Origin: a virus
Direction: 5' to 3' (one strand)
DNA: 64,000 bases
Virus record (IMG/VR): IMGVR_UViG_3300002448_000161
Position 1 is the stretch's first letter. Each line of letters begins with the position of its first letter. This document shows positions 1 to 64,000 of the stretch, piece after piece. The notes below the pieces were generated by a model, which was given only the letters and a program-made list of their open reading frames with translations, made no database searches and was not told the DNA's origin. The position numbers and the translations under genes were made by a program.

Positions 1-114
1 GTCTCCGTTGGAGCCCATACAGGCTGTTGCCAGCGTGAGCAGCGTTGCCAGGATAGCGGCCGTTGCTGCCGCGTATAGTCCTCTTGCCTGATCAGTTTTG
101 GTTCGGGTATTCAC
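1..114 (-). CDS. Lipoprotein, N-terminal part only (runs off the left end)
   Basis: Read by hand, not in the ORF track. GTG at 114 follows an AGAGAGG RBS and gives MNTRTKTDQARGLYAAATAAILATLLTLATA-C-MGSNGD, a signal peptide with a lipobox. Confidence 0.6.
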   Translation of the reverse strand, partial: MNTRTKTDQARGLYAAATAAILATLLTLATACMGSNGD

Positions 115-337
115 TGGCGTCGCCTCTCTTGGTCTCCTGCAGAGCCCGGTGTAATGGGTGGTTGGTTGGCTGGTACAGGCTCCACCTCAGGCTGTGGATT
201 ATTTTTGCCCTCTGGGTTGTAGGTCGAGAGGCCAGCTCTGCCTTGAGGTCGGGCCAGGTTCCTGCGCCTCTTTCGCCGGTTACCGGATTGGTCCAGATGG
301 CCCACTTTTCCTCTTCAGGCTGGGGTGTGTGTTGCAT
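92..337 (-). CDS. Hypothetical protein (~81 aa)
   Basis: 3' part of track ORF 92..547. Probable start MQHTPQ at 337, just after the DUF488 stop. Confidence 0.5.
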   Translation of the reverse strand: MQHTPQPEEEKWAIWTNPVTGERGAGTWPDLKAELASRPTTQRAKIIHSLRWSLYQPTNHPLHRALQETKRGDASEYPNQN

Positions 338-348
338 GTTCCACCGCC

Positions 349-921
349 TTATCTTCGGTAGGCTATGGCTCGGCCCTGGGTCTCCAGTGCTTTTTCGCCT
401 AGCTTGGCGGTCAGGGTCTGCACCAGGTCGGAGTGTCGGACAGTTACCTTCCTCGGTTTTATGTGGACGGTTTCGTGTCCGAGTATCCGGAGCTTCTCCG
501 CGATGAGCAGGCTTCTGTGGCATTTTTCCGGATCCTTTTCTGTGCACATGAATGCGGTTAGTTGGTCAGCTGCGCTGAGCAGGATCTGGTTCAGCGTGGT
601 GATGAACGGAGTCTCCTGGGCCATCAGTCCGTAGTCGGCCACCCCGTTGCGGTACAGCCGCTCCGTCGTGGGCCTCCCGCCCAGGTTTTGTCCCTCATAC
701 TGGTAGTCGATGCCCTTTCCGGTCAGGAAGGTCTCCAGCTCTTTTCGGTTGAAGTGGGGCACGTAGTTGGATTTCGGGTGGCTTCTTACGTCGATTACCC
801 TGGCGATCCCGTGCTGGTTCAGCATGTTGAGGAAGCCCGCGGCTGTGTGGTTGGAGTGGCCTATCGAATAGAGCACGGCCTGACCCTCCTTTTCCTCGGG
901 TTCCTGTGACTTCTGGTTCAT
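349..921 (-). CDS. DUF488 family protein
   Basis: Motifs YSIGHSNH, VIDVRSHP, LGGRP and FMCTEKDPEKCHRSLLI. Confidence 0.85.
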   Translation of the reverse strand: MNQKSQEPEEKEGQAVLYSIGHSNHTAAGFLNMLNQHGIARVIDVRSHPKSNYVPHFNRKELETFLTGKGIDYQYEGQNLGGRPTTERLYRNGVADYGLMAQETPFITTLNQILLSAADQLTAFMCTEKDPEKCHRSLLIAEKLRILGHETVHIKPRKVTVRHSDLVQTLTAKLGEKALETQGRAIAYRR

Positions 922-950
922 AGTTCAGTTTTCCTTTTCGGTCGCTGGTC

Positions 951-1457
951 TCAGCATTTTATGTAGCGCGGGGGTCCGGTTGGGTCCAGGTTCTCGCCGG
1001 CCCGGTCTTCGAGGGCCTGGTGTACGCCTTTGATCGTTCTGACCAGGTATGCCGCCGCCCGGTGCATCAGGTCCGGTTCTTCGGGGTCCTCGTACAGGAT
1101 CACCGTCCTCTTTCCGGTGGCGATGGCGTATCCGAGTTCCAGGTGGGCGGACCGGCTGCAGGGCAGCACGCAGATGACCGCTGTGGCTTCTTTTAGCGCG
1201 GTCATGTCCCGTTCGAATGTTTTGACGCTGTCCTGGTCTTCGAGCATTTGAATCACTTGCTCAAAGTCGATGCTTCGGCCGTGTTCTCCCTGCCCGTTGC
1301 TGTTCAGCTGCGCCCAGGCCCCTGGCTGATTCTCCTCGGTGAAGTTGAAGACGGTGTGTCCGTTCTCTCTCAGGCTTTTCGTCAGCTCTGTCAGGCGCCG
1401 ATTGCGGCTGCTGCTTGCGATGTAAATCTGGTGTTGGTTGGGCGAGTTTTCTGTCAT
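951..1457 (-). CDS. Nucleoside 2-deoxyribosyltransferase-like (NDT fold) protein
   Basis: IYIASS at the N-terminus, D...LKEATAVICVLP, and SAHLELGYAIATGK (catalytic-Glu motif of NDT/Rcl hydrolases). Confidence 0.7.
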   Translation of the reverse strand: MTENSPNQHQIYIASSSRNRRLTELTKSLRENGHTVFNFTEENQPGAWAQLNSNGQGEHGRSIDFEQVIQMLEDQDSVKTFERDMTALKEATAVICVLPCSRSAHLELGYAIATGKRTVILYEDPEEPDLMHRAAAYLVRTIKGVHQALEDRAGENLDPTGPPRYIKC

Positions 1458-3136
1458 GGCTGGGAATCTCCTTTATCTGCTGGCAGGCCATAGTACCATT
1501 GGAGGGTGTCAGCGTGGTTTTTGATTTCGGGAAATTCCGCGATGAGGGCTCCTATCGCGCTCTGGGGGTCGTGGGCCCGTATTCTTTTCATTCCGTCGTA
1601 GAAGGGCTGGGCTCCGGCCTGATCTCTGATCTTTGCCAGCAACGCGGTTCCGAGCCGATAGTGGCACTGGGTTGTTGCGTTGTACCTGGGCCTTTGGGCC
1701 AGGGGCATTTCTTCGGCGCAGCTCGCGGCCTCTTTCCAGAAAGTGCCGTGCTGCTCGGACCCGGCGATCAGTTCAGCCATTCCTTCGGCCAGCCAGACCT
1801 CGGCGCCGTGCCAGTAATGGTGGGCGATTTCGTGGAAGAGTATTCTTTTCAGTTCCGCCCGGTCGGGCTGGTGTACAGCTCCCTGCTCGTCGTATCTCCG
1901 GTTGATCACGGTCGCCGTGTCGTAATTTATTCCTCCCACCGTTGGGTGACCGGTGTCTCCCATGACCAGTATTACTGTCTGGTCCGGCAGGGGCTCCTGG
2001 TTGACCAGCTCGTTGTGGGCCACGGCTTTCTTGAGGTACTCCATGGTCTCGCTGCGTCCCCGGCCGTAGGGTCTCACTATGTGCAGGGTTATCCGGCCGC
2101 TGTGCGCTGTTTCGATTGTCGTGCTTTCAACCGTCGTATTCTCCGGCTTCAGCATTTCGTGGAGGCGGGCCGGCTCGTGTCTGGATGCCGCGTACGCTGC
2201 CGCTATTACCGGGGTCCATGCATCGGATATGCCCGTGTCCTGGAACGTGGGGTGGTCCAGGACCTCTTTCAGGTCCTCCGGACTCCTGTGGTATAGCTGC
2301 GCGAGGGTTTTGACCGCGCTGCGGTCCTCCGGTTGCCAGGTCTGCAGGAAGGGCATTGACGCTATGCCTCCCGGCTCTTCGTTGTCATGCCGGCTTTCCA
2401 GCCCGGTTACGATGTCTACTGTTTCTCTTTGCAGGGCGTTGAGCTCCCGCCCGGTCCACGGCAGCTGAAGCGGCCTGATTATGGTTGCCGTGCCCGGCGC
2501 CCAGCCGTCGCTGTCCGGTTTCGTCGTATCTTGCTGCCTTTCTTCAGCGGTGTGGCTGTGGCTGTGCTCCGCGATCCGTGGATTGGTGGCGATATGCTCT
2601 GGAAGTTGCCACTCGAATCTTTCGCTCGAGGCAAAGGCTTCGGATCTCAGGTCGTTCATTCGCTGGCGCAGCTTCTCGGTCCGTTTCGGGTTAGCTCCGC
2701 TTTTGTCGGCGTGCCAGACGGCGTGGTGCATGCTCGTGAGTGCGGCCTTGGTCTCTCCCGCGAGGGCCTGGCAGTATCCGATGAGTTCGTGGCTTCTTGA
2801 GGATTCTGCGGCGTAGCCGTGTCCAAGCTTGAGCCTTGCGATGTGGTCTCTCGCTGCGTCGATGGCGCCCTGGCAATCGCCGCTTTCGGCCCTGTCTACG
2901 GCCGTCGTGAGTCGGCTGACGGTCCGGTCATAACCCTGTGGGGTCTCCGGTTCGGTGGCTTCCTGCTGTGGGGGAGGGCTCTTCAGGCTGGTCTGCGTCG
3001 GCGTCTCCAGGTGATCTGGGTTGTTGTTATCCTGGCCGGTATTTATGGTTATGCAAGCGGCCTGCGCGACAGCCGCTGTCAGCAGGGCGGCCAGCAGAAT
3101 GGTGGTTGTTCGCCTATTTTTCATGTTAAGACCCAA
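1454..3136 (-). CDS. Secreted/lipoprotein zinc metallopeptidase (gluzincin-like C-terminal domain)
   Basis: Signal peptide ending QAA-C, a helical TPR-like N-region, and HEIAHHYW...WLAEGMAE (HExxH plus downstream Glu). Confidence 0.7.
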   Translation of the reverse strand: MGLNMKNRRTTTILLAALLTAAVAQAACITINTGQDNNNPDHLETPTQTSLKSPPPQQEATEPETPQGYDRTVSRLTTAVDRAESGDCQGAIDAARDHIARLKLGHGYAAESSRSHELIGYCQALAGETKAALTSMHHAVWHADKSGANPKRTEKLRQRMNDLRSEAFASSERFEWQLPEHIATNPRIAEHSHSHTAEERQQDTTKPDSDGWAPGTATIIRPLQLPWTGRELNALQRETVDIVTGLESRHDNEEPGGIASMPFLQTWQPEDRSAVKTLAQLYHRSPEDLKEVLDHPTFQDTGISDAWTPVIAAAYAASRHEPARLHEMLKPENTTVESTTIETAHSGRITLHIVRPYGRGRSETMEYLKKAVAHNELVNQEPLPDQTVILVMGDTGHPTVGGINYDTATVINRRYDEQGAVHQPDRAELKRILFHEIAHHYWHGAEVWLAEGMAELIAGSEQHGTFWKEAASCAEEMPLAQRPRYNATTQCHYRLGTALLAKIRDQAGAQPFYDGMKRIRAHDPQSAIGALIAEFPEIKNHADTLQWYYGLPADKGDSQP

Positions 3137-3638
3137 CCTTCAGGGCCAGGTTGGTCGTACGGCCGGGTGCTCTGCGCCGGCTTCCCTGAACGTGCAGCTC
3201 TCTTTGCACCTGGTCCAGGTACTTTGCGTCCTCGGCCTTCCGGTTGGCCTCAAGTCCGGCTTTTATTTCCGCTGTGGTCATTCCGCTTTCCGACATCGTA
3301 GCCCGGTAACGGTTGAAGGTCTCTTCCAGGGCGTGCTCCCCCTCTTCCAGGGTCTTGAAGTTCCTGATGCCGCGGATCGGCGAGCGGGGCAGGTCTCCGA
3401 TGCAGCACCATCCCCTTGCTGAGGGCAGCTGTGACGGTCGCCGAGCCAGTTCTCCGTCGGGATGGTACTGGTCGCTCTTGTAGAGCGTAGCGTCGAAGTC
3501 GGGCCCGATGTATTCCACTATTCCGGGTTGAACCTGGATCCAGTTCTGGCTTTTCATTTTCCACACCTCGTTGAGCAGGTTGCGCGTTCTTCCGCTTACC
3601 TTCCGGCCTCGCTGCTCTGGCGCGAGGCTCTTCCCCAC
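3126..3638 (-). CDS. Hypothetical protein
   Basis: Open frame in operon position. The start may be MKSQNW at 3557. Confidence 0.45.
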   Translation of the reverse strand: MGKSLAPEQRGRKVSGRTRNLLNEVWKMKSQNWIQVQPGIVEYIGPDFDATLYKSDQYHPDGELARRPSQLPSARGWCCIGDLPRSPIRGIRNFKTLEEGEHALEETFNRYRATMSESGMTTAEIKAGLEANRKAEDAKYLDQVQRELHVQGSRRRAPGRTTNLALKVGS

Positions 3639-3705
3639 GGGGTTTGGTGGCCCTGTTGGCCGCTGTTTCTCGCCGGCCAGGCTTCACGGCGTCCTGGTGT
3701 CAGGA

Positions 3706-3714
3706 TGGTATGAT
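3706..3714 (+). promoter_or_regulatory. Candidate extended -10 promoter upstream of parA
   Basis: TG-g-TATGAT in the divergent intergenic region. Confidence 0.35.
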
Positions 3715-3878
3715 GGCAAAGCGCCCGGGTGACTTCCCGTCCTGGCCGCTCTCCTGTTGCAAGTCGTGGAGACTTGCCGGAAAACTGCTTTACCCGCCCA
3801 CCGTTCTTCTGTTAAGGTTCTCTAACATCCTGGCGGCGAGCCGTCACGGCCTGTCGTCGATTTGGGGGGGTTGCAGTT

Positions 3879-4544
3879 ATGTCTCTGTTCGTTGGGTTTG
3901 TGGGGTTCAAGGGCGGGACCGGCAAGACTATTCTCTGCTTTCAGATGGCGGAGCGGGCGCTGGCCGCCGGGCTCAAGGTCTGTGTCGTCGATCTCGACCC
4001 GGAGCTGTCGTCCCGTGATCATTTCCTCTGGCGTTCCCAGCGGGAGCTTTCTACCTGGGACCTGGAGGTCAAGGACGTCAGTCGTGCGCCGGAGCGGGAG
4101 ATGTTTGACGGATCCTTGGATTCCTACGACATCGTCTTCTGCGATTTCCCGGGCTTTAACTCCGACCGGGTGCGTGAGTATATGGACCGCATGGACCTTA
4201 TGCTTGCTCCTATCTCTGCCAGCCCGCAGGACCGGACGGTGAATACCTCTCTCGGCTTTCTTGGCCAGCGACGCTCGTGGCCACTTTATTTTGTCGTCAA
4301 CCACGTTGCGGTCAGCAGCAAGCGGGCGCGGTCCCTGCTGGAGGACCTTTTCGCCGGCGAGTTCAAGATCTGTCCGGTCATGGTCTCCCGCTGGGTACTT
4401 TTCCACGAGTCGTCCGAATGGGGTTACGGGGTGTGTGAATACGCTCCTGAGTCCCGCGCTGCGGCTCAGGTGGGCCGCCTGTGGTCCTGGTTGGATGAAA
4501 CCCTTGGTACTCTCGTTGAATCGCGGCTTGCGGCCGCAGTTTGA
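3879..4544 (+). CDS. parA: ParA family partition ATPase (short, type Ib)
   Basis: Deviant Walker A KGGTGKT, VVDLDP, and FCDFPG. No N-terminal HTH. Confidence 0.9.
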   Translation: MSLFVGFVGFKGGTGKTILCFQMAERALAAGLKVCVVDLDPELSSRDHFLWRSQRELSTWDLEVKDVSRAPEREMFDGSLDSYDIVFCDFPGFNSDRVREYMDRMDLMLAPISASPQDRTVNTSLGFLGQRRSWPLYFVVNHVAVSSKRARSLLEDLFAGEFKICPVMVSRWVLFHESSEWGYGVCEYAPESRAAAQVGRLWSWLDETLGTLVESRLAAAV

Positions 4545-4554
4545 GGTGATGTTT

Positions 4555-4875
4555 ATGAGTTCCCAGTCTTCAAAGCCCTCCGTGCCCCTTTCGGGTCGCT
4601 CGCACATCGAGGCTGCCCGCGAGCGCGACGTCAGCCGACAGCTGGCGGATTCTCCTCCGGAGAACGGTTCTGGTTCTTCGGATGCGGCCGAGTCCAGATG
4701 GTCCAACGTGGTTGCCAAGCCCCGCGCTAACGGCAAGGTCAAGACGACCATTCATATATTGGCCGAGCGTCAGGCCTTTCTCCGTCGCGCGAATTACATC
4801 ACCGAGCGTAGCGTTTCCGACCTGGTGGACCAGGCTATTGAGCTGCTTGAGAAGGAGCTCGCCCTCGATGACTAG
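4555..4875 (+). CDS. Putative ribbon-helix-helix partition adaptor (ParG-like)
   Basis: Follows parA with a GAGGTG RBS. Disordered N-terminus, then KTTIHI (strand) and two helices (SVSDLVDQAIELL). Confidence 0.6.
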   Translation: MSSQSSKPSVPLSGRSHIEAARERDVSRQLADSPPENGSGSSDAAESRWSNVVAKPRANGKVKTTIHILAERQAFLRRANYITERSVSDLVDQAIELLEKELALDD

Positions 4876-5480
4876 GGCTGTCCTGAAAGCCTGGCGTTGG
4901 TGGGCCCCCGCTGGTTCTGGTAATGGCTTCCGAGTTCCGGATGGCCATAGGGCCGCCGGGCTGGCTTGTCCATCATCATCAGCGCCATCTGCCCGATCTT
5001 CATACCTGGCCGGAGCCTTATGATGTGCCTGGCCAGGTTGCTTATTTCCAGCGTTAGATCTCCGCTGAACCCTGGGTCTATGAATCCGGCCGTCGCGTGT
5101 ATTGCCAGCGCCACCCGGCCCAGGGTGCTTTTGCCTTCTATCCTGCCGACAATGTAGTCCGGCAGGCTTATGATCTCCATCGTGCTGCCCAGTACGAAGT
5201 CTCCTGGAAGGAGGAGGTATCCTTCCGGTCCTATGTCGACCTCTGTGGTGGGTACGTTGGTTCCTTCCTCTACGTCCACGATCCGTGACGGTGTCTCGTC
5301 GAATGTTCTCAGCTGGCCTGCCAGGTGGAGCTCCACGCTGGCGGCTTGCAGGTCGCGCTCGGTGAAGCCGCTTATTTTGATCTCGCCATCGTCGATCAGC
5401 TTTTTTATCGTCTGGTCGCTCAGCATCAGTCCTCCGGTTGGAGTATCTTCATGGGGCGTCCGGCCTGTCTTTTCCAACAT
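4872..5480 (-). CDS. dcd: dCTP deaminase, probably the dUMP-forming bifunctional type
   Basis: Motifs GRIEGKSTLGR, AGFIDPGFSG.LTLEISN, PGMKIGQ and YQNQRGPT, which resemble the actinobacterial Dcd type. Confidence 0.92.
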   Translation of the reverse strand: MLEKTGRTPHEDTPTGGLMLSDQTIKKLIDDGEIKISGFTERDLQAASVELHLAGQLRTFDETPSRIVDVEEGTNVPTTEVDIGPEGYLLLPGDFVLGSTMEIISLPDYIVGRIEGKSTLGRVALAIHATAGFIDPGFSGDLTLEISNLARHIIRLRPGMKIGQMALMMMDKPARRPYGHPELGSHYQNQRGPTNARLSGQP

Positions 5481-5493
5481 GGTATATGTCCTC

Positions 5494-6921
5494 TCAGCCC
5501 TGGCTTCGGTAGACTTCTTCCTGGAAAAGGCTGGGGTGCAGGCTGGCCAGTTTGTCCGTTGCCTCTTTTATCGGACGCCTGATTGAAGCGTGGGCTTTCT
5601 CCGATGTCCTCAGTCGCAGCAGGTGGTAGCACTCGCGCAGGTTTACCGTGGTGATCATCCGCTGGATGTGCGTGTGGGTTACCAGGTAGGCGGCCGCTGG
5701 CGGGCAGTATTCGGCGATTTTCTGGTGCGCCCTCGCGGCCTGTTCCAGCGCCTCGTCGAACTCGTCGGCTGCGCCGGCTTCCTCTATCAGGTCCGGCATG
5801 GTCCGTCCCAGCGAGATGGTGGGCTGCTGGGGCAGCAGTGATTGGATCCGGTGGCGCCGGAACTCCCGCAGGGCTCCGTAGTCCATGGCCAGCTCCAGTG
5901 TGAAGTGGATCTGTTCCAGCTCCCTGGGCCCCGGGTCGTGGGGCCCCATCCTCTTCAGGTAGCTTGCGATCAGCTCTGCTCTTTCCTCTTCTCCGAGCGC
6001 CTGGGCGGTGTTCCTCGCCTGCTGGTAGCTTGTGTTATGTCGGTGGAAAAGGTAGGCGGCGGCGAGCCTTTCCTCGGCGTCCCGGTCGTCCTGTATTACC
6101 CGGGCCGCCGGCCCCTTATTTTTGTTTCGCGCCGATGCTCCGATGGTCATCTGCACCGGTCGGTTCAAGTCCTTCTGCAGGTAGTCGGAGGCTTCGGCGT
6201 ACTTAACCAGCGAGGGGCAGATTTTGAGCGCTTCCTGCTTTAGTTTCTGTCCCAGCTCTCTCTCCTCGTCGAGGGGCGCTGACAGCAGCTTGCTGATGGC
6301 GTGTTCCATCGTCCTGGCGTTGGCGGTTAGGCCTACGTTTGTTGTTGTGGCCGCAGGCAGCAGGCCTCTGCTGGAGTCCATGGCTATACGTTCCAGGCGG
6401 CTGGTGAAAGCCCTTTCGGTCTCGCCAGCATTTTTGTCTGTGGTGGTTTTCAGGTGCGTTACGCACTGGGCGGTTATGGTCTCGTAGCTTTGCATCAGCT
6501 GGTTTGCCGCCTCCTTGAAGGCGGCGATTAGCTGCGGTTTCCCGGCCAGCTCGGCCGGTGTATGAAAGTTTCCTGGGATGATGGCCTGGTATCTGGAGGA
6601 TTTTTCGGTGTAGGAGCCGAGCCGGTTATCCTCCAGCCGGTCCACGGCGAGCCTGGAGAAGTTTTCCACCGCGATGTGGAGGACTGCGTGTTCTGCCACT
6701 GACGCGTGGCCGTACCCCAGCACCCACTTTTCGTTGAACTCCTCTGCCCTGGTTGCGGTCACCTGTCTGGCGATGGCGTCGAAGGCTTCCGGGTTGCGGG
6801 AGGTCATTGCAAAGGTTACGGCTATTTCTTCTTCGGTGGTCTCCCTGTGGTTCAGCGCGTAGACCCGGGTTACCGGGTTGTCAATTTCCGGCAGCCGGCT
6901 TTGTGTCATTGGTTTCTCCAT
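5494..6921 (-). CDS. thyX: FAD-dependent thymidylate synthase, tandem-domain type
   Basis: First domain has GHASVAEH and RLGSYTEKSSRY. Second domain has EFRRHR and NLRECYHLLRLR. Confidence 0.85.
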   Translation of the reverse strand: MEKPMTQSRLPEIDNPVTRVYALNHRETTEEEIAVTFAMTSRNPEAFDAIARQVTATRAEEFNEKWVLGYGHASVAEHAVLHIAVENFSRLAVDRLEDNRLGSYTEKSSRYQAIIPGNFHTPAELAGKPQLIAAFKEAANQLMQSYETITAQCVTHLKTTTDKNAGETERAFTSRLERIAMDSSRGLLPAATTTNVGLTANARTMEHAISKLLSAPLDEERELGQKLKQEALKICPSLVKYAEASDYLQKDLNRPVQMTIGASARNKNKGPAARVIQDDRDAEERLAAAYLFHRHNTSYQQARNTAQALGEEERAELIASYLKRMGPHDPGPRELEQIHFTLELAMDYGALREFRRHRIQSLLPQQPTISLGRTMPDLIEEAGAADEFDEALEQAARAHQKIAEYCPPAAAYLVTHTHIQRMITTVNLRECYHLLRLRTSEKAHASIRRPIKEATDKLASLHPSLFQEEVYRSQG

Positions 6922-7420
6922 TCCTTCGCGGGGTACCGGCGGCGGTTTTCGTTCCCGTTTCCGGCGCCATTTTTCGTCGGTCTCGTGCTTCCGTTGCTGC
7001 TTTCAGCGTGGGCAGTCGGCAGGCGGTGACCTGCACCCGTTTCTGGGCCGCGTTGCTGTCCCATTTGTTCTCCCTCGCCCAGGCGTATTCCAGGCAGGCC
7101 CGCAGGTAACGGACGTTGCGGGTCTCCTCCATCCTGTAGGGGCCGGAGCACTCGCTCTGCCAGGGCCCGGCGGCTGGTGTAGAGTGAACCTCCCTGCCCT
7201 GCAGTTTCATTCGGGCCTTCCAGGTTTTCCTCCATCTGTCGATGGCTATCTGTATGTTGTGGAATCCCGCCTGGGCGTTGGGGTGGTCGTGGAAGTCCCC
7301 GCGCCCCTTCCTCATCTGGTGGTCGAGCCTCAGCTCCCGGTAGTTCCGGCCCTTGCGGAGCAGGTCCGTTACGGCCCTTGCTTCATCTTGTTTGCCGCTT
7401 CTGGCCGGCGGCGCCGTCAT
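6881..7420 (-). CDS. Hypothetical basic protein
   Basis: Fills the gap between the DUF1937 gene and thyX with abutting ends. No motif recognised. Confidence 0.4.
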   Translation of the reverse strand: MTAPPARSGKQDEARAVTDLLRKGRNYRELRLDHQMRKGRGDFHDHPNAQAGFHNIQIAIDRWRKTWKARMKLQGREVHSTPAAGPWQSECSGPYRMEETRNVRYLRACLEYAWARENKWDSNAAQKRVQVTACRLPTLKAATEARDRRKMAPETGTKTAAGTPRRNGETNDTKPAAGN

Positions 7421-7915
7421 TCAGCTGCACCCTTTGGTTTGATTCCAGATGGTTCTCATCATCTCGAGTTGGTCGGCGCCGATGGCCTCTTCCATTTCCC
7501 TGTGGTCTACTACCGCGATCGGGGTCGCTTTTCCTCTTGCGAAGCCCAGTTCCGTGAGGACTCCCTTGCTCTCCTCCCAGCCGGGCAGGCAGAGCAGGAC
7601 AACCCCGGCCGCCGCGGCCAGGAAGCTCATGTCAAGGGTGTACCATCCGTCCGGGTGGTGGATCCCGTCTTCCTCCAGTTTCACGGTGTAGGCTATTGGG
7701 GAAAATACTGCGTTGCCCTGTCCGATGATCGCCTTTGCCATTTTGGCGATTGCCTCGCGTCTCAGCGCCATCAGCTTCTTGTTTTCGCTGTAGTAGGGCG
7801 CTGCCAGGTAAACGTAGCCGGGTATCGGCCGGTTCAGGCCCTGCATGTAACGGTTGAAGTCGCCGTTGGGGCCTTCGATGTCCGGGGGAGTGTTGGGCAG
7901 TCCTTTTCCTGTCAT
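7421..7915 (-). CDS. DUF1937 / NDT-fold nucleotide hydrolase-like protein
   Basis: Motifs YVYLAAPY, AVFSPI and LCLPGWEESKGVLTELGFA. Confidence 0.75.
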   Translation of the reverse strand: MTGKGLPNTPPDIEGPNGDFNRYMQGLNRPIPGYVYLAAPYYSENKKLMALRREAIAKMAKAIIGQGNAVFSPIAYTVKLEEDGIHHPDGWYTLDMSFLAAAAGVVLLCLPGWEESKGVLTELGFARGKATPIAVVDHREMEEAIGADQLEMMRTIWNQTKGCS

Positions 7916-7955
7916 TGGAAGCTTCTCCTGGTCCGTGGCTTCTTTTTTGGTGTGG

Positions 7956-11069: not shown

Positions 11070-11100
11070 GGTCCTGCGGGCTCCTTTACTTGTTTGGTTT

Positions 11101-11832: not shown

Positions 11833-11954
11833 GCCTGTCCGCGCTGTGGTGGTTGTGGGTAGCCTATCCTAGCATGGAGCCTTTCTTTTCTTGTCGGGCT
11901 TGGCCTTTGTCGGCCTCGCCGGTTTTTCGTGCCGTTGGAATGCTTTTTGCCCTG

Positions 11955-12560: not shown

Positions 12561-12608
12561 TTTTTTAAGTCGTTTTGTGAAAGTCACGTTCATGGCCCTG
12601 ATGTTATC

Positions 12609-12662
12609 CTTTTTTGGGCCGGTCCTGCCTTTCATTTCCGGTTCTATCTTTTTTGGGCCGGT
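12609..12662. repeat. 15-bp perfect direct repeat, two copies
   Basis: CTTTTTTGGGCCGGT at 12609-12623 and 12648-12662 (39-bp period), in the dsbA/AIM24 divergent region. Confidence 0.7.
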
Positions 12663-12685
12663 GGCCCTTGAACAGGGGGGTTAGC

Positions 12686-13363: not shown

Positions 13364-13445
13364 GCTGTCTCCGGTATTTGCCCCTGGTTGGAGTCTCTCT
13401 GGCTCTGCTGCTTTTCCTAATCTGTCTTATCGCGGAGGTCTATCT

Positions 13446-52918: not shown

Positions 52919-52942
52919 TCCTGTTTAACTTGAGGTTTTCTG

Positions 52943-54123: not shown

Positions 54124-54125
54124 TT

Positions 54126-54341
54126 ATGGAACTCTTTTTGCAACTGCTCGTGATTGTTCTCATCCTGGTAGCGGTTTTTTTCATTGTGCGGCGTCTCGCC
54201 GGCCTTGTTTTTTCGATTATTGCCTTGGTCGTCGCCGTGGCGCTGGTGGCCTACCTGGTCCAATACTTTTCACCGGAGCTCGCGGATCGACTTGTTCTTT
54301 ACTTTGGTGGCTTGCTCCGTATGGTTGGCATTGTTGTTTAG
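54126..54341 (+). CDS. Small membrane protein
   Basis: 71 aa, almost entirely hydrophobic, within the operon. Confidence 0.6.
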   Translation: MELFLQLLVIVLILVAVFFIVRRLAGLVFSIIALVVAVALVAYLVQYFSPELADRLVLYFGGLLRMVGIVV

Positions 54342-54385
54342 GGCTCCGGTGAATTTTTAATTTCACAATTCTAGGAGGTGTCTTC

Positions 54386-57013: not shown

Positions 57014-58019
57014 GATTCTTGTGTGTCTCTCCTTCCTGGCTGCGCTCGTCGTTGGCTGTGGCTCATCGGCGTCTGGCGCTGGTGGCGGTCCTGACGGGGA
57101 ATCCGTCGGTTTTGGTGTTGAGGTTGCGGCTCTGCCTGCTCCTGATGACTTTCGTGTCAGCGCGTCGGCTGATCGGCTCGATTTTGACGGGATCGTGGTT
57201 CCTACTCCGTCGGTGTCCATTTCGTCGCGAGCTTTGCGGCAGCGTCAGACCCAGGTTCCAACCAGTACCCCGGTTCCTCGGCTAAGTTCGGTCCAGTCGG
57301 ATCTCGATTCGTCCGCGGGGTGCGAGGCTTTGTTTCGCAGTCTCATTGTTTCCTTACCGGCCGAGCCGCTTTTTGGCGCTGAGGTTGTCTCAGCTGCAGT
57401 TGATACCTTCGCCCTGGAGTCACCTTCGTGCTTGGCTGAAGGGTGGGACCCTGTGGTTGGGCTTCAGCGGGTATGTCATGGCCTTCGGGTTGGTGGCTTG
57501 TTGCTGCCCGAGGGGTTAACGACCCTTCCCGAGTTTGGCGGTCAACGTTCCGCCGGTGTTACCGGCCGGGATGAGTCAGGCAATCTGCTTATTCATTTCG
57601 ACGCTGTTCCCTTTGAATCGTTGTCCGGCTGTTGGTTTTACGATTCTTCTCGCGAAATCTGGGGCTGGTCCCTGTCGGACGGCCGCGAGGGCATCGACCG
57701 CGTCGTTCAATCTTCGTGTGATGAGGAGCTCCGGCGGTTGATTCTTCAACTTGACGTCGTAGATGCGGAGTTGGTCTCTGAGGTTATGCTCTCTATCCGT
57801 CAGGCGTATCCGCTCGATTGCGATGCCCGCGCCTGGTCTCAGTTTCCTTCTCTGTTCTCCAATCGTGATTGCCGCCATGATGGAGTGACCGGCCGCTTTG
57901 AGGACGGTTCCATTCTGATTAACTGGCTTCCTGGGTACCTGGCGTCTGATGGTTCAGTATGCTGGTATTGGGATCCGGAGGATGACCTTTGGCTCTTTTC
58001 GTTCGAACCTTCGTCCTGA
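56988..58019 (+). CDS. Lipoprotein with two tandem copies of the 4-Cys domain
   Basis: ATG at 56988 after a GGAG RBS, in frame with track ORF 56616. Lipobox VVG-C, PTP linker and two domain copies. Confidence 0.75.
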   Translation: MRSLLLSIRILVCLSFLAALVVGCGSSASGAGGGPDGESVGFGVEVAALPAPDDFRVSASADRLDFDGIVVPTPSVSISSRALRQRQTQVPTSTPVPRLSSVQSDLDSSAGCEALFRSLIVSLPAEPLFGAEVVSAAVDTFALESPSCLAEGWDPVVGLQRVCHGLRVGGLLLPEGLTTLPEFGGQRSAGVTGRDESGNLLIHFDAVPFESLSGCWFYDSSREIWGWSLSDGREGIDRVVQSSCDEELRRLILQLDVVDAELVSEVMLSIRQAYPLDCDARAWSQFPSLFSNRDCRHDGVTGRFEDGSILINWLPGYLASDGSVCWYWDPEDDLWLFSFEPSS

Positions 58020-58867
58020 GCGTCGTAGGTGGTTTGGTTCTCTTGGGTTGTGGCGGCGGCGCCGTTGAGCCTTCCGCGCCTGCTCTGCAGGTTCTGGCTG
58101 ACGGGGATTCGCCCGTTGTGAGGGCGTCTGTTCCAACGCCGTGGCCCACTTTTACCCCGTTGCCGGTTCCGACGGCGTTGCCGGTTGTCGCCCCGGTTCT
58201 GGCTACTGCTCAGGCCGAGCCCACGCCTGTCTTGTACCCTACTCTGGTTCCAGCCGTACTGGCCCCTCCCGCGGTCCGTGTTCCGACTGCGGTCCCGGCG
58301 CCGACCCTGGCCGTGGTGGTTCCAACTGCTACTTCTGTCTCTGTGGAGACCTTCCAGCCTGTCGTCGTTGATGTGGTGGTTACCCTTGAGGCGCCCACGC
58401 CCACGCCTACTCTCGACAGTGATGGTTTTGAGGATCCGCCGGCCGGTGGCATCCTTTTATATCGTGACGGCGCCGCTTTCCAGAGGCAGTCTGTCTTTGT
58501 GATGCAGCAGGCCGAGCTTCCCGACTACCTGCAGGAGGGTGATCTCTCACGCCTTCCCCCGACCTCGGAGCGGATTCCCCACACAGCTCCTTTTATCTTC
58601 TGGTTTGTCGGATTCGATATGAGTCAGGCGGTGTCCGATTTTGAGATGGAGGTGACCCTCCGGTGGATGAGCCTTGGCCCTGAGGGTGTTGGCCTTGAGG
58701 GATTGGAGATGTATTCTGACAGCCGTGTTCTCACCCACGTTGAACCGTATTTTTACAGTGGCATTGGAGCGCCGGTAGGCGGGGTCTGGCCGCTGGGCGG
58801 GTATCGCCTGGAACTCTTGGACGACCGTGGGGAGCTCATCGGTTCTTGGGGGTTTTTCGTCATATGA
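57989..58867 (+). CDS. Lipoprotein with long Pro/Thr linker and Ig-like C-domain
   Basis: Lipobox LLG-C, PTP repeats, and a C-terminal W..G.Y.LE......IG...F.V motif. Confidence 0.7.
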   Translation: MALFVRTFVLSVVGGLVLLGCGGGAVEPSAPALQVLADGDSPVVRASVPTPWPTFTPLPVPTALPVVAPVLATAQAEPTPVLYPTLVPAVLAPPAVRVPTAVPAPTLAVVVPTATSVSVETFQPVVVDVVVTLEAPTPTPTLDSDGFEDPPAGGILLYRDGAAFQRQSVFVMQQAELPDYLQEGDLSRLPPTSERIPHTAPFIFWFVGFDMSQAVSDFEMEVTLRWMSLGPEGVGLEGLEMYSDSRVLTHVEPYFYSGIGAPVGGVWPLGGYRLELLDDRGELIGSWGFFVI

Positions 58868-60369
58868 AAGTACGTCGTAACTGGCTGAAATTTCTTCTCT
58901 GTGGGTGTGCCGTTGCCGGAGTCTTCGCTCTATTCGCGATTTTCGGCTCTTTTGTGGGGCGGGTTCATGCCGAGCCTTTCTATCCTGATCAACGCAGTAA
59001 CTGTTCCCAGAATACGTGTGGGTCCTTCTGCTTCTGGGCTATCTGTACTCTTTGTGCCCAGCGGTGCGGGACGTGTCCTATCTCTGGGCCGTCGCGGTGT
59101 CCTCAGTTTGGGACTGGTTGACGCGAGGTTAACGAGCCACCGGAGGTGGAGCGAATTGTCTGCAACGACTGCGCTGGGCAGCTGGTGTGCCAGTGTCCGC
59201 CGTGTCTTCGTTGGTGGTATCACCTTTACGGCATTACCAGCAGTCGTACCGGCTTCATAGAAAATTACGTCGGCCCCCATCCGGCGCGCCGCAACTGGAA
59301 TTATTCCACTCCCCGGGTTAGCCAGGCCGTGGACTTCGCCCTGCGGCTTCCGTTGGATGACATTGTATGTACCGAATCCCGGTCATTGCGGAATGTTCAG
59401 ATTAATGTTCCGGCTCCAACTGCCTGGCCGCATCGAGTGTTCGTTGGCCCAGCGGCTGTTCCTGCACCGACTGTTTTTGCGCCCCGTAGCAGTGCCTGGA
59501 GCCACGCGGAGGGCATTCAGCCGGAGTTTAATGCCCTGGGGCCCCTGCACGGCCAGGAGGACCGGGATTTTGACCGCTATCCGCATGCTGCTGATATGGC
59601 TGTCCCGGTAGTCTATCCCGCGCCTGGCCTGGGTGGTCCCAGCATTAATTCTGTCCAGGTCCATCCGGTTACCGGGCGTATCCGCTTGGACTATTCCGGT
59701 GTTGCCGCAGGGCGGTCAGTTCATGTGCGGTACTGGCATGTTTCGGGACTGTCTCCCAGCGCTCCTGAGGCCGATTTCCGGCCCTATGGTGGGGGGTGGA
59801 TCACCCCGCCCCGTTCGGGGTTTTACGAGTTTCAGCTCGCTGCGGTTCTTGACGGCTTTGACCCGTTGGTGTCCAACAGTATCCAGAGCTGGTATCGTGT
59901 TGAGGAAGTCTTCCACCGGCCGTTCGCCGAATCTAGGGCAAGGGTTCCTCCCTTGTTGGTGGCTCCGCCGACAACTACTCCGTTGCCTGTTGTTCCCGGC
60001 GTTCAACGGCCCGCCCGGCCTGTCATCAGCGTTCTCTCCCAGGACTATACGGAGGATGCCCCGGCCATCCGCGTTGTCGTGCCTTCGTCCCCCGCCGGGG
60101 CTTTGGAGTATCGGTATTGGCGCCACACCGGCCACCTGGTCCCGGAGGATCTAACGGTTTGGCACAGAACCTCTTCGAGGTCCTTTGTAATCAGGGACTT
60201 ACCTGCTTTGGTGGTACCCTCTGAATGTTTTAGGGATGGCGCGCCTGCGGTGGTCCCCTGCCCTCTCCGGGTCCCGGTATTTTGGGATGTTCAGGTCCGG
60301 GTTACTTCAGGTGCCGTCAGCGACTTGTCGCCGGCCCGTTCGGTGCTTCTTCATAGCGTTGGCCCCTGA
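58864..60369 (+). other. Cys-rich secreted protein interrupted by one in-frame TGA (readthrough, Sec or nonsense mutation)
   Basis: Track ORFs 58846..59121 and 59146..60369 are in the same frame, separated only by TGA at 59119-59121. The signal peptide is in the first part and FN3-like domains are in the second. Confidence 0.6.
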
Positions 60370-60697: not shown

Positions 60698-61309
60698 TTA
60701 TTTTTTCAGGAGTGCCAGCGCCAGCTCGAGCATCTCGGTTACGACGGCTTCTGGAGGTTGTGTCCCGTCGATTACTTTTATCTTGTCTTTATTTGCGGCC
60801 GCCTGGTCCAGGTAGCCTGCTCTCACCTTTTCGTAGAAGGTGTTGCTTCTCGTTTCGAAGGCGTCTTTTGAGGTTCCCCGGTCGCGGGCTATCTGTATTG
60901 GGACGTCTATGATCAGCGTCAGGTCCGGTTCGAGGCCGCCGGTTGCCAACTGGTTCAGGTTGGCGATTACGTCCAGCGGTACTCCGCCCGCGTACCCTTG
61001 GTAGGCTGTAGTTGAGGTCGTGTACCTGATGCTGATTACGTTGGTGCCCTTGGCCAGCGCTGGTTTGATTCGCGTTTCCACCATCTCGTGCCTGGCTGCT
61101 TCAAACAGCAGCGCCTCCGTGAGGGGCTGCATTCGATTCTCCTCGGTGAAGGCTTGCTTGACGTGGTTTCCGGTTTTGGTTGAGCCCGGGTCTTGTACCA
61201 ATGCTATTGGTACATCCAGCGCCAGGAGTTTCTGCATCAGCTTTAATGCCGCTGTGCTCTTTCCCGACTTGTCGGTCCCCTCGACTGCCATGAAAAAGGG
61301 GTCTGGCAT
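60698..61309 (-). CDS. tmk: Thymidylate kinase
   Basis: VEGTDKSGKST, LLFEAAR, RY..ST.AYQG, PDLTLIIDV and IDG. Confidence 0.93.
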   Translation of the reverse strand: MPDPFFMAVEGTDKSGKSTAALKLMQKLLALDVPIALVQDPGSTKTGNHVKQAFTEENRMQPLTEALLFEAARHEMVETRIKPALAKGTNVISIRYTTSTTAYQGYAGGVPLDVIANLNQLATGGLEPDLTLIIDVPIQIARDRGTSKDAFETRSNTFYEKVRAGYLDQAAANKDKIKVIDGTQPPEAVVTEMLELALALLKK

Positions 61310-61310
61310 T

Positions 61311-62741
61311 TCATGCCTCCTTTCTGAGAGATTCGATTATCCTACCTGCAACGTCGGCGCAGCAGTTGCCCCATGTGGGGCCGTGGTCTGTTCCTCCGTC
61401 GGCTTCGGAGTGCCCCAGTTCGTGGACGATGATGGCGATCTGCTCTGCTCCTCTCCCTTGAAAGAAGTCATCGTCCAGGTGGTGGGTATTGAACCTCATT
61501 GTCGGGTTCCGGGAGTTCATTGTGCAGCATGCCAGTCGTTTGGCGCCGCTGTCCCTGACGTATTCAACCGTAACGCTAAATCCGGCCGCACTGGCCAGTT
61601 GCTTTGCCCACTTGGTGAAGCCTATTCTGGCGGGGTTTCCCTCCTCACTTTCCATTATTGCCGGCTCGTTGTTGGTCCGGTCTGAGAAGAGTGCGTGCGA
61701 GCTTTGCAGGCCGCCCTTTTGCCTCAGGTTTTTGAGTTCGTTCTGGGAAAGGGAACGCGGGTGGATTACCTGGTAGCCCTTGTCCAGTGCATCCATGTTT
61801 GATTGCGTATTGGAAGACCAGGTGACTACTTTGTCGCCGTAACGACTTTTGATCGTGGTCTTCACCGCGTCTTCGGTGATCTCCGGATCTTCGATTGCCT
61901 CGCGTACCCACGTTTCACTGAAGGATTCGGCTTCCATGTCCTCGTGGACCTGCGCCAGCACCAGGCTGTAGACCTTCTTCAGGTATGCGTCGCTGACTGT
62001 GTCCCGGTTGGGGGGCATGGGAACTTTCTGCAGGATGTTGACATCGTAAGGTACGTCGATTTCCTGAATGGGTATGCCCATCTCGTAGATGTGGGCGACG
62101 TCGGCGACGCGGTCGCTGATCTGCAGGTCTGTCATCCGGCGGGTTGTTTTCATCGGCCCGCCGTCCTCTTCCTGGACGATGGTGGGGAGCCTGGCCCGGG
62201 CTATGTGCTTCACCGGCGGTTTCGCCGGCTCCTTTCCATTTATGGTGAACGTGATGTGTTCGGGGGCCTTGAAGTAGGTCAGCCTCTGGGCCAGTTGTTC
62301 CGCGTCGCGGGTGTCCCAGGGCATTACTGCCTGGATTTGGGTTCCCTTTTTCCTCCGGTTCGGGGCTATTTCCCGCCCGCCTTCGGCGGGGAAATGGATG
62401 GTTGTCCCAACCGTTTCTATCTTGGCCTCGATGGCCACCGATATTACTTCCTTCTCACCGAGGTTGAATCGGCCCCTCTTGGTGGGGTCTCTTCTCTTGG
62501 CGGTCTCTCCCATGATCGTGTAGGCGTCGGCAACGTCTGCAAAACCGGCGCCGTCGTCGGTTACGGTCACCCTGATTCCGGCCAGGTCGGGCTCTATTTT
62601 GACCTCGCACTTGGTCGCTGTGTCCTCGTCGAAGACGTTTTGAATTAGCTCCTTGATGAGCTCGTGGGGTCTGCGGTCCGCGTGGAGGCTCCGCATTCCA
62701 TTGCTGTCGACGTCGAATCGCTGGCTTGCTTTTGTGGTCAA
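61311..62741 (-). CDS. GHKL (HATPase) protein with C-terminal HExxH domain
   Basis: ELIQNVFD, DDGAGF, GRFNLGEK and IVHELGH. TTG start at 62741 after an AGGAG RBS, overlapping the upstream stop. Confidence 0.75.
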   Translation of the reverse strand: MTTKASQRFDVDSNGMRSLHADRRPHELIKELIQNVFDEDTATKCEVKIEPDLAGIRVTVTDDGAGFADVADAYTIMGETAKRRDPTKRGRFNLGEKEVISVAIEAKIETVGTTIHFPAEGGREIAPNRRKKGTQIQAVMPWDTRDAEQLAQRLTYFKAPEHITFTINGKEPAKPPVKHIARARLPTIVQEEDGGPMKTTRRMTDLQISDRVADVAHIYEMGIPIQEIDVPYDVNILQKVPMPPNRDTVSDAYLKKVYSLVLAQVHEDMEAESFSETWVREAIEDPEITEDAVKTTIKSRYGDKVVTWSSNTQSNMDALDKGYQVIHPRSLSQNELKNLRQKGGLQSSHALFSDRTNNEPAIMESEEGNPARIGFTKWAKQLASAAGFSVTVEYVRDSGAKRLACCTMNSRNPTMRFNTHHLDDDFFQGRGAEQIAIIVHELGHSEADGGTDHGPTWGNCCADVAGRIIESLRKEA

Positions 62742-63280
62742 ATCTTTGCTCCTGTTCTTGCTGTTGTTGGTGTTGGTGCGCGGCTTTTCCATTTTAGCAG
62801 CGCCGTGTGGCCCAGCAGTCCTGCGCAGGCTGTAATCATCAGTAGCAGCCCGGCCTGGGGAATTGGTATGAGCCCGAGCCGCTTTATGTTCTGGTCGAAG
62901 ATCGGGGTCTCGGCCGTCGCAATTACTAAGAACGGCATGACGATCAGGAAGATCTGGTGGGCTGTGGCTTCCCTGCCCTGGAGTGTCCTCCACGCCATCG
63001 TCAGAGTTACGGTTATCATCAGGGCCCCGAACGCCACGAAGAGGATTGTTCCCAGGGGGTTGGCCCCCATCCATTGTCCGAGCTCGGGGGAGGTTATGCC
63101 GTAGGTCAGCAACTGGCTTCCTGACATTCGGCCTTTCTCCCCTATGGGGAGCCATGGCAGCAGTATGGCGACTGCTGCTGCAGTCGCCACTATCATCCTT
63201 GTCCTATGGTGCCAGGCTTCCTGCTCGGCTTGGTCCCATTTTGTTCGCAGGTTGTCTGCGAACTCTTTTATTCGGTTCAT
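62738..63280 (-). CDS. Membrane protein (about 4 TM)
   Basis: Start MNRIKEF at 63280, with several hydrophobic helices. Confidence 0.65.
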   Translation of the reverse strand: MNRIKEFADNLRTKWDQAEQEAWHHRTRMIVATAAAVAILLPWLPIGEKGRMSGSQLLTYGITSPELGQWMGANPLGTILFVAFGALMITVTLTMAWRTLQGREATAHQIFLIVMPFLVIATAETPIFDQNIKRLGLIPIPQAGLLLMITACAGLLGHTALLKWKSRAPTPTTARTGAKI

Positions 63281-63282
63281 TT

Positions 63283-64000
63283 TTACCCCCGGTTGAACTG
63301 GTTTTCGAGCTGTTCCGACCTCTGCCTGAAGAGGTCCAGCTCGGTATGGAGCGTGGATATGGCGGCCGGTATTTGGTGAAATTCCTGGTACAGCGTGGCG
63401 AAGTCTGCGGAAAGCGTCTGCTTGGTGATTTCCAGGTTGAGCTGGCGCAGCTCCAGCATGATGATGTTTGACTGGCCCAGTATGTCGTGGGCCTGGACTT
63501 GCCATTCGGTATAGAGCTCGCGCTCTTCCTGGTCTTTGGCCTGGTAATGGGCTTTTCGCGTTGCGTTGGGCATCCTGCTCGTCAGGTCGGTCTGCGTCCT
63601 GAAGTATTCGCCCGCCCTGCGGTCCGCCTGTTCTAGGCGCCAGCGGAAGCGTCTGTGTTGCGCTGTGGCCTCCTGGTACCTGGCGGTCCATTCGTTGTAA
63701 AAGGTTTCGACCGCGGCTGCGTATTCGCTGTCCTGGGCCTCCAGGTTGGCTCTCTGCTCTCGGCTTGTTCTCACTGCCTCCAGCGCGGCTTGGTCAGCGG
63801 GGTTTGTGTTAGTCTCATAGGGCGCTGGTGGCGGTGTGCTTTCTTCTACCGGAATCTCGCTGTCTGTGTAGGTACCTGGCGGTGGCGGTTCCCCTGGTGG
63901 TGACTCGTCAACCTCGGGCTGGTCTGGTTCCGGGTTAGCGGCCGCCGGGCTTTGGAGCCCTGGGGGAGCGGGAGGCATTATGTTGGTGTAGGTCCGGTCA
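63283..64000 (-). CDS. Pro-rich/coiled-coil protein, probably truncated by the window end
   Basis: The frame stays open upstream of track ATG 63978 to the window edge. Confidence 0.55.
   Translation of the reverse strand, partial: DRTYTNIMPPAPPGLQSPAAANPEPDQPEVDESPPGEPPPPGTYTDSEIPVEESTPPPAPYETNTNPADQAALEAVRTSREQRANLEAQDSEYAAAVETFYNEWTARYQEATAQHRRFRWRLEQADRRAGEYFRTQTDLTSRMPNATRKAHYQAKDQEERELYTEWQVQAHDILGQSNIIMLELRQLNLEITKQTLSADFATLYQEFHQIPAAISTLHTELDLFRQRSEQLENQFNRG

Follow-up and report, generated by a model that had tools for sequence, protein, structure and literature searches.

The 64,000-nucleotide stretch of DNA analysed here (IMG/VR virus record IMGVR_UViG_3300002448_000161; hereafter the window) lies in a large conjugative element whose host is a sponge-type Dehalococcoidia bacterium, and its plus strand is rich in T and poor in A over the entire length, whatever the orientation of the genes. 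The element comprises at least 285 kb over five contigs of a 58-contig, 4.39-Mb genome (G000), in which the window corresponds to the minus strand of part of contig C23 (G000:C23:2354-66353), and a strong mutation pressure, limited to the element and to one DNA strand, acts on it. In a complete circular relative, the asymmetry runs round the whole circle without a change of sign, and on balance we favour the interpretation that the circular element is always copied one way, with its strands treated unequally, from a single site near the transfer genes.

Strand asymmetry in the window

The plus strand of the window consists of 13.5% A, 28.4% C, 30.5% G and 27.6% T, which corresponds to an AT skew of -0.34 (8640 A and 17674 T; binomial z = 55.7). 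T exceeds A in 128 of 128 bins of 500 bp and in 629 of 640 bins of 100 bp, and at 2-kb resolution the AT skew stays between -0.26 and -0.41 throughout, with a GC skew of only about +0.04. The first-pass annotation had described a strong excess of T over A regardless of gene orientation on the basis of hand counts in four 60-nt lines (A8/T19 at 181-240, A7/T17 at 25021-25080, A3/T12 at 51661-51720 and A6/T23 at 55621-55680). These counts proved exact, and the description holds for the window as a whole and at four-fold degenerate sites. The same annotation had seen no switch point, and none exists in the window or in the whole of the 102.5-kb contig C23.

Four-fold sites were counted in the plus-strand frame within open reading frames (ORFs) of our own simple calling, for which we retained the longest non-overlapping frames of at least 120 amino acids (aa) with a higher GC content at third than at second codon positions (GC3>GC2). 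In plus-strand genes, these sites have an A frequency of.063 and a T frequency of.334 (AT skew -0.68, n=3965), and in minus-strand genes the corresponding values are.057 and.187 (AT skew -0.53, n=6122). The skew is seen at all three codon positions, and non-ORF DNA has an AT skew of -0.43. When the four-fold signal is decomposed, the DNA strand contributes about -0.61 and the coding strand about -0.08; for host contig C16 the two contributions are -0.02 and -0.12, respectively, and its intergenic DNA has a skew of -0.005. At the sites where the first-pass annotation had proposed to look, the skew of the window thus neither vanishes nor tracks the coding strand. On the T-rich strand, A occupies 4-8% of four-fold sites irrespective of the 5' or 3' neighbour, and this equal depletion in every neighbour context rules out a motif-specific process; both a sequence-specific deaminase and motif avoidance were rejected for this reason.

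Element and host chromosome

Only five contigs of the G000 genome, about 285 kb in all, are skewed: C23 (102.5 kb), C28 (91.7 kb), C56 (58.9 kb), C34 (15.0 kb) and C29 (16.7 kb). Their absolute AT skew is 0.22-0.36, of one sign from end to end in each, and there is no switch of sign in C23, C28 or C56. In windows of 20 kb, the absolute AT skew never falls below 0.22 in the element (11 windows), whereas in the host (182 windows) it has a median of 0.024 and a 95th percentile of 0.083 and never exceeds 0.162. The GC skew of host contig C16 changes by about ±0.04 in the ordinary replichore manner, and its AT skew is about ±0.02. A possible match between the asymmetry and the ordinary replichore skew of the host was checked, and there is none, the skew of the element being 10-20 times that of the host.

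In pairs of paralogues divided between element and host, only the element copies are shifted, with a four-fold T frequency on the A-rich strand of.043 vs.159 in the host. The nrdJ, thyX and dcd genes of the element are about 72% identical in DNA to chromosomal genes across the host genus (16 of 16 genomes) and to the chromosomal copy of G000 itself. Since the shift is found only in the element copies of genes that retain this identity to the host genus, the composition was acquired on the element. Insertion sequence (IS)-like copies common to element and host contigs, at 86-96% identity, are still unskewed, and that such recent copies lack the skew fits a slow pressure acting in place. Taken together, the shared IS-like copies and the identity to host-genus genes indicate an element resident in the lineage rather than a stray contig. 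Polarisation of the mutation spectrum through the shared IS-like or paralogous copies gave weak asymmetries, the copies being too recent and equal in composition. No near-identical DNA to the window was found in plasmid and phage collections, and a scan of metagenomes with the VirB4 protein for near-identical strains found nothing.

The ends of the element contigs are repeat nodes of a short-read assembly graph, the repeats being common to host contigs, and exact 127-bp overlaps link the head of C23 to C11, C27 and C33 and the tail of C28 to C8, C9, C12, C19, C51 and C58. Two small patches within the element, G000:C28:58000-60000 and G000:C56:13766-15232, are unskewed or reverse-skewed; the latter is 89% identical to host contig C43 and looks like a recent IS-like insertion that is still without the composition of the element. 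Isolated 5-kb bins with an absolute AT skew of 0.16-0.30 also occur in otherwise unskewed host contigs (C44 at 5-10 kb, C50 at 25-40 kb, C42 at 15-25 kb, C37 at 30-45 kb and C53 at 320-330 kb), which may represent pieces of the element or small relatives of it that have integrated.

A complete circular relative without a sign switch

The complete relative, G001:C1 (OY282384.1; loci L096-L128), measures 643,545 bp; a canonical tRNA-Thr(UGU) gene that runs across the junction between the end and the start of the sequence shows it to be circular. Its overall AT skew is +0.36, positive in 65 of 65 10-kb bins, with A exceeding T in 642 of 643 1-kb bins, and there is no sign switch anywhere on the circle. 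The four-fold AT skew is +0.56 in plus-strand genes and +0.62 in minus-strand genes, the gene-strand bias is about 72% all round the circle, and the 2.55-Mb chromosome binned with G001:C1 is unskewed in four of five samples.

When the four-fold GC skew of G001:C1 is taken gene by gene for the 375 genes of the A-rich strand, it follows a sawtooth with its best break at 170 kb (Spearman rho -0.44), being weakest just above 170 kb, strengthening round the circle and reaching its strongest values just below 170 kb. This correlation was reached in 0 of 300 simple permutations and in 0 of 200 block permutations (blocks of 10 or 25 genes; p<0.005). At 2-kb resolution, the GC skew weakens at 170 kb, from -0.37 to -0.14, and the break falls in a 2.1-kb ORF-free stretch (169.4-171.5 kb; L104:9400-11550), within which, near 170.5 kb, a GC skew of about -0.4 gives way to one of about 0. 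The stretch holds 12-nt tandem repeats, among them three copies of GGACAAACCACC and about three of CCACCAGGGAAG, and constitutes a candidate origin or nick region. The coupling protein is encoded at 198-202 kb and the type IV secretion system (T4SS) at 220-237 kb. Pfam searches with the genes flanking the break were uninformative, and an equivalent origin-like discontinuity looked for in contig C28 of G000 was not clear.

G001:C1 has 22 repeat pairs of 400 bp or more, every one of them direct and none inverted, and there is no multi-copy IS in its 643 kb; inverted paralogues or multi-copy IS with which to polarise mutations thus do not exist in this replicon. The circle encodes a DnaE-type DNA polymerase III (Pol III) alpha subunit of 1450 aa and an error-prone polymerase pair composed of ImuB-like and ImuC (DnaE2-like) proteins. 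It also encodes a protein with a Tad2-like anti-Thoeris domain (L158), and it is filed as 'chromosome 1' of an Acidimicrobiales metagenome-assembled genome (MAG), although its relatives are in Dehalococcoidia.

A family of skewed elements

A total of 115 protein clusters are related to the VirB4 protein of the window (E <= 0.001), many of them on long contigs, with members of the VirB4 cluster on contigs of 0.51 Mb and 1.05 Mb, and in species-representative genomes the VirB4 relatives are nearly all in Dehalococcoidia MAGs. With VirB4 set on the plus strand, all 10 of the 10 loci in a close clade (56-62% identity) show negative AT skew, ranging from -0.07 to -0.34. In a distant clade (35-38% identity), 66 of 70 loci are unskewed (absolute AT skew <= 0.08), the exceptions being L018 and L032 (-0.16) and L056 and L078 (+0.10). 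Of the 58 homologue pairs that the G000 element forms with G001:C1, 55 share their compositional strand, although the median protein identity of the pairs is only about 37-40%. The skew is a trait of the element family, and its polarity is fixed relative to the T4SS genes.

Two further members illustrate the range of the family. Contig G002:C2 (291,720 bp) is skewed over about 190 kb, with a four-fold AT skew of -0.27 to -0.36 and a GC skew of +0.12 to +0.15, and holds a 100-kb unskewed stretch. The 3.78-Mb chromosomal contig G003:C2 contains a skewed, integrated island about 135 kb long (225-360 kb), sharply bounded and with normal flanks and two small unskewed inserts, in which the four-fold GC skew is -0.55 in plus-strand and -0.35 in minus-strand genes and the AT skew +0.15 and +0.21, respectively. 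The A-rich strand is also the C-rich strand in all four elements, and the division between AT and GC skew varies among them (0.36 and 0.03 in G000, 0.36 and 0.11 in G001, about 0.24 and about 0.14 in G002, and about 0.19 and about 0.28 in G003). The A/C-rich strand carries 64-72% of the ORFs in the window, C23, G001:C1, G002:C2 and the G003 island.

Two more skewed patches were noted on chromosomal contigs of this family's genomes. One (G003:C2:175000-210000; L141-L143) has an AT skew of -0.17 and no GC skew, and adjoins the 135-kb island in the opposite orientation; the other (L163; G001:C2:2.20-2.22 Mb) has an AT skew of -0.16 and a GC skew of +0.23. Both are probably additional integrated members of the family.

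Chemistry of the compositional change

Compared with the four-fold sites of the host, those of the window's element differ on the T-rich strand by about -0.095 for A, +0.11 for T, -0.015 for G and -0.005 for C, the net change being from A to T and purines on this strand being down by about 0.1. As transitions conserve purine content, deamination of cytosine and adenine is alone insufficient and transversions are needed, which could be direct A>T changes or follow routes such as A>G and then G>T. A pure deamination model was rejected for the window's element because of this net loss of purines. In the element copies that have host paralogues, the T lost from the A-rich strand has been replaced mostly by C and G, a shift that on the T-rich strand reads as A>G and A>C.

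The single constant over genes, orientations and contexts is the depletion of A on one strand. Candidate causes would include adenine-specific damage on exposed single strands (deamination, depurination with A inserted opposite the gap, or N1-alkylation), miscopying of template A, and an asymmetry of the deoxythymidine triphosphate (dTTP) pool tied to the dTTP pathway that the element itself encodes. That AT and GC skew vary inversely across the elements would fit a shared primary keto (G+T) bias, to which a G>T component of varying strength is added, converting an excess of G into one of T.

Mechanism of the asymmetry

Replication of a circle by two forks that leave a single origin necessarily produces a sign switch. 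Its absence from a complete 643-kb circle indicates that the asymmetric process runs one way round the circle, and the integrated G003 island, which keeps a one-sign skew and sharp borders, indicates that this process stems from the element's own life cycle and not from the host fork. The first-pass annotation had attributed the skew to a replication-linked mutational bias over one long replichore with exposure of single-stranded DNA. Part of this reading stands, since the bias is mutational in kind (present at four-fold sites and in non-coding DNA, and free of sequence context), tied to the DNA strand, confined to the element and without a switch on a complete circle. The strand displacement that it suggested would be favoured by the GC-skew sawtooth of the relative, but no relaxase or Rep nickase was found among the families searched; prolonged single-stranded exposure may be the cause of the bias, but the purine loss goes beyond deamination alone.

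In the interpretation that we favour, the asymmetric step would lie in replication of the rolling-circle or strand-displacement type, in conjugative transfer of a single strand, or in both. The G+T-rich strand (the plus strand of the window) would be repeatedly displaced or exported as a single strand and would steadily lose adenine. In G001:C1, this strand would be nicked in the 2.1-kb region and peeled off 5' to 3', such that the DNA displaced first would become the most skewed and the DNA displaced last the least, the coupling protein and T4SS (198-237 kb) being displaced last. Time-dependent damage to single strands predicts a gradient of this kind, and the arrangement would match the classical layout in which transfer genes enter last. 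The GC-skew sawtooth would favour strand-displacement or rolling-circle copying over ordinary theta replication. We infer the one-directional copying, the exposed strand, the site of the origin and the chemistry of the lesions, which could be damage specific to adenine or a bias in the copying of template A alongside C-to-T changes. More tentatively, these circular conjugative elements (0.1-0.64 Mb, from sponge-type Dehalococcoidia) might be by far the largest one-directional, strand-displacing replicons, propagated from one nick site by rolling-circle replication or conjugative transfer, with one strand chronically single-stranded and mutated, a possibility that we regard as somewhat doubtful.

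Several observations weigh against one-directional displacement. To our knowledge, rolling-circle copying of a circle of 0.1-0.64 Mb is without precedent. Neither a relaxase nor a Rep nickase could be recognised in the four genomes G000-G003, where there was no match to the TraI_2 or Relaxase families, the TrwC, Rep_trans and Mob_Pre families being left unsearched; the neighbours of the coupling protein likewise gave no family match with NCBIfam and permissive Pfam searches, which divergent relaxase or Rep families could have escaped. Theta-type parts are carried by these replicons, namely dnaN in the window's element and DnaE with ImuB/ImuC in G001:C1. G is about equal to C and purines are lost in the window's element, for which simple deamination of single-stranded DNA provides no explanation. 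The sawtooth of G001:C1 is uneven and in places step-like, the AT-skew trend in its minus-strand genes runs the opposite way (block-permutation p = 0.06-0.08, not significant), and the pattern is known from a relative about 45% identical in protein, not from the fragmented G000 element. The last point concerns the order of transfer. The orientation of early genes relative to the transferred strand has been reported for plasmids (PMC11541004), and ArdC, the orphan methyltransferase and about 70% of the genes here have the T-rich strand as template, an orientation that matches these early genes and by itself speaks for the model. Under the proposed polarity, however, the ArdC/core module would be among the DNA that arrives late.

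Unidirectional theta replication by a coupled replisome, with fixed leading and lagging strands that differ in error or repair spectra, perhaps through the element's own polymerases, would also produce a complete circle without a switch. The dnaN gene on the element and the DnaE and ImuB/ImuC cassette of the relative suit such a replisome, about 70-75% of the genes share a strand, as they do in strongly co-oriented replicons, and purine-losing transversions arise more easily from polymerase misinsertion or lesion bypass than from deamination. We nevertheless consider it rather unlikely. The brief and uniform single-strand exposure of a coupled fork predicts no gradient, whereas a sawtooth is seen; the majority gene strand would be the leading strand, yet it is C-rich and A-rich, and an excess of G over C on the leading strand is common (PMC8941118); no Pol III alpha gene is present on the assembled G000 element contigs; and integrated copies keep the skew. 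An asymmetry of nucleotide pools appears improbable, although the nrdJ, dcd, thyX and UDG genes of the element lend themselves to it. The T-rich strand would be resynthesised in donors expressing nrdJ, dcd, thyX and tmk and its complement in recipients with a normal or poor dTTP supply, so that one strand would receive too much T, or the other too little of it opposite template A. A loss of A on one strand (equivalent to a loss of T on the other) that is invariant in every context, together with a net gain of T at unchanged GC content, is in keeping with this idea, but the proposal is purely inferential, vegetative replication would dilute the effect, the GC-skew sawtooth is not predicted, and relatives with mostly G/C asymmetry, such as the G003 island (four-fold GC skew of -0.35 to -0.55), are left unexplained.

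Selection or transcription, whether through codon adaptation to element tRNAs, purine loading of mRNA, transcription-coupled damage or properties of the transferred strand, could draw on the concentration of 70-75% of genes on one strand, on the nine of 12 tRNAs of G001:C1 that have U at anticodon position 34 (U34) and on the strand dependence of protein composition. Such an effect would flip with gene orientation, as it does on the host chromosome, whereas minority-strand genes and non-ORF DNA are equally skewed in the DNA frame, and the tRNA set is more simply a consequence than a cause of the skew. A transcription- or codon-driven skew was rejected on the absence of this flip, and we hold the whole group of explanations to be very improbable. 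To artefact or contamination, in the form of strand-specific sequencing or assembly error or of foreign contigs binned into the genome, we give almost no credence. It is true that G000 was assembled from short reads, that its contig ends overlap by 127 bp and that one relative is filed as an 'Acidimicrobiales' MAG. Long intact ORFs with strong family matches, the recurrence of the skew in long-read MAGs assembled independently, also within 3.8-Mb chromosomal contigs whose flanking DNA is unskewed, the DNA identity of about 72% to host-genus genes and the IS-like sequences common to host contigs all argue against it, and the intact ORFs and the agreement of independent assemblies led us to reject it.

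Gene content and codon use

The first-pass annotation had noted that gene function partitions by strand, and Pfam agrees, assigning the T4SS pilin, a VirB6-like protein and VirB4 to the plus strand and dcd, thyX, nrdJ, UDG, helicase, ArdC, PRTRC and dnaN to the minus strand (Table 1). The nrdJ product is a class II ribonucleotide reductase and that of dcd a dCTP deaminase, and VirB4 matches TraG P-loop and AAA_10. The orphan DUF6094 methyltransferase and ArdC are candidates for anti-restriction functions. The two nucleoside 2-deoxyribosyltransferase-like genes (951-1457 and 7421-7915, minus strand), one of which also matches DUF1937, flank dcd-thyX-nrdJ, and with the nearby DUF488 and UDG-family genes they look like a nucleotide-salvage or base-modification kit.

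Table 1. Features of the window, in window coordinates.
Feature	Position	Strand	Basis or remark
Uniform asymmetry, plus strand T-rich and A-poor (AT skew -0.34, GC skew +0.04)	1..64000	.	Part of C23, skewed over all 102.5 kb
A-rich-strand block: DUF488, two nucleoside-deoxyribosyltransferase-like genes, dcd, thyX, nrdJ, UDG, PriCT_2 primase-like gene	349..28211	-	Pfam
A-rich-strand block, further genes: radical SAM, SNF2-like helicase, DUF6094 methyltransferase, ArdC, UvrD-like helicase	349..28211	-	Pfam
T4SS pilin gene, T-rich strand	29186..29890	+	Pfam
DEAD helicase, macro domain, PRTRC cassette (ThiF/E1, JAB, E2, Ub-like) and dnaN sliding clamp; A-rich coding strand	29932..39990	-	Pfam
Four co-oriented ORFs without family match; T-rich coding strand	40067..43400	+	Pfam
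T4SS operon: 2159-aa VirB6/TrbL-like protein, VirB4 (54386-57013) and unknown ORFs; T-rich coding strand	46439..60369	+	Pfam
Genes including that of a 614-aa HATPase_c protein; A-rich coding strand	60698..63978	-	Pfam

Outside the window, the tail of C28 carries an ORF for a 1342-aa coupling-protein-like product that matches TrwB_AAD_bind and T4SS-DNA_transf just over the cut-offs, and it also encodes a DnaG-type zinc-ribbon protein and a second UvrD helicase, which brings the UvrD/PcrA-type helicases of the element to two. Judging from synteny with a relative, this tail joins the head of C23. Directly downstream of the coupling-protein gene lies the gene of a 497-aa protein without family match (L157:8205-9698, minus strand; G000:C28:80205-81698), whose place beside the coupling protein is kept in G001:C1 (29% identity). 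Inspection by eye suggested a weak N-terminal winged helix-turn-helix and a C-terminal 'PDG ... EYER' resembling a PD-(D/E)xK nuclease motif, and the protein is a candidate DNA-processing partner of the coupling protein.

The asymmetry extends to codons and proteins. T-ending codons account for 3-9% of four-fold boxes in the minus-strand block at 349..28211, and in the plus-strand T4SS operon A-ending codons account for 3-9% and T-ending codons for 30-37%. Window proteins encoded with an A-rich coding strand contain 4.5% Lys, 8.6% Glu, 4.8% Val, 6.7% Gly and 2.6% Phe, and those with a T-rich coding strand 1.3%, 4.8%, 9.4%, 10.7% and 4.7%, respectively. These amino-acid differences may in part reflect membrane vs cytosolic function, an objection from which four-fold sites are free. 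G001:C1 has 12 tRNA genes, of which the nine with U34 anticodons, reading A-ending codons, are Thr-UGU, Arg-UCG, Gly-UCC, Arg-UCU (two copies), Pro-UGG, Ser-UGA, Ala-UGC and Gln-UUG; contig C28 of G000 has Gly-UCC and Arg-UCU. In the A-rich-strand genes of G001:C1, AGA/(AGA+AGG) is.58 vs.28 in the host (G000 contig C16), and CAA/(CAA+CAG) is.35 vs.20. These values are consistent with, though not proof of, a tRNA set that compensates for skew-driven codon use.

Significance and comparison with known systems

Strand skew is the main clue to the copying mode of a replicon that can be had from sequence alone, and a one-sign, mitochondrion-like skew 10-20 times that of the host on a 643-kb bacterial circle implies a mode of replication or transfer undocumented at such a size. 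The element also provides a natural experiment, in which the same gene families in the same cell differ in replicon and strand, allowing the effect of mutation pressure on codons and proteins to be measured. As a marker that requires no annotation, the skew can reveal the family, its integrated copies and their borders in metagenomes, and it explains why composition-based binning may misplace such elements, one of which is filed under Acidimicrobiales. If one-directional displacement is indeed the cause, the pressure would split the proteome into two codon and amino-acid dialects, fix gene orientation over deep divergence and favour the carriage of the element's own tRNAs for A-ending codons.

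Replication-associated skew in bacteria is typically 'around 2.5%' (SkewDB, PMC8941118). Like such ordinary skew, that of the window combines T and G excess on the same strand, as is the case in most bacteria, and is seen at third codon positions and in non-coding DNA; unlike it, the AT skew amounts to 34% overall and to 53-68% at four-fold sites. It also differs from two-replichore skew in that the circular replicon has no sign switch, most genes lie on the C/A-rich strand and the asymmetry is confined to a mobile element whose host is nearly free of it. In the papers searched, we found no element-wide AT skew in conjugative elements, no skew of such kind reported for ICEBs1-type elements and nothing relevant on megaplasmids or replicons of sponge Chloroflexota.

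The integrative and conjugative element (ICE) ICEBs1 replicates as a unidirectional rolling circle from its origin of transfer (oriT) with the NicK relaxase and the PcrA helicase (PMC3542172). The elements described here resemble it in being conjugative, in having integrated and free forms within the family and in encoding UvrD/PcrA-type helicases, and the one-directional discontinuity of G001:C1 lies close to the coupling-protein/T4SS module, as for ICE copying from oriT. They differ in that no relaxase was found in the element genomes G000-G003 by TraI_2 and Relaxase searches, and their size is 5-30 times that of ICEBs1.

Vertebrate mitochondrial DNA replicates by strand displacement and has a G+T-rich heavy strand and an A+C-rich light strand. 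As in this system, the skew of the elements is of one sign round the circle and independent of orientation, most genes are sense on the A+C-rich strand and, in G001:C1, silent-site skew appears to depend on position with one reset site. The differences are that the replicons are 6 to 40 times larger (0.1-0.64 Mb), bacterial, conjugative and of about 60% GC, that AT skew dominates, with GC skew near zero and a net loss of purines, and that neither a displacement origin nor replication proteins of the mitochondrial type have been recognised in them. The closest analogue would thus appear to be vertebrate mitochondrial DNA in form and, in biology, the unidirectional rolling-circle replication of ICEs from oriT.

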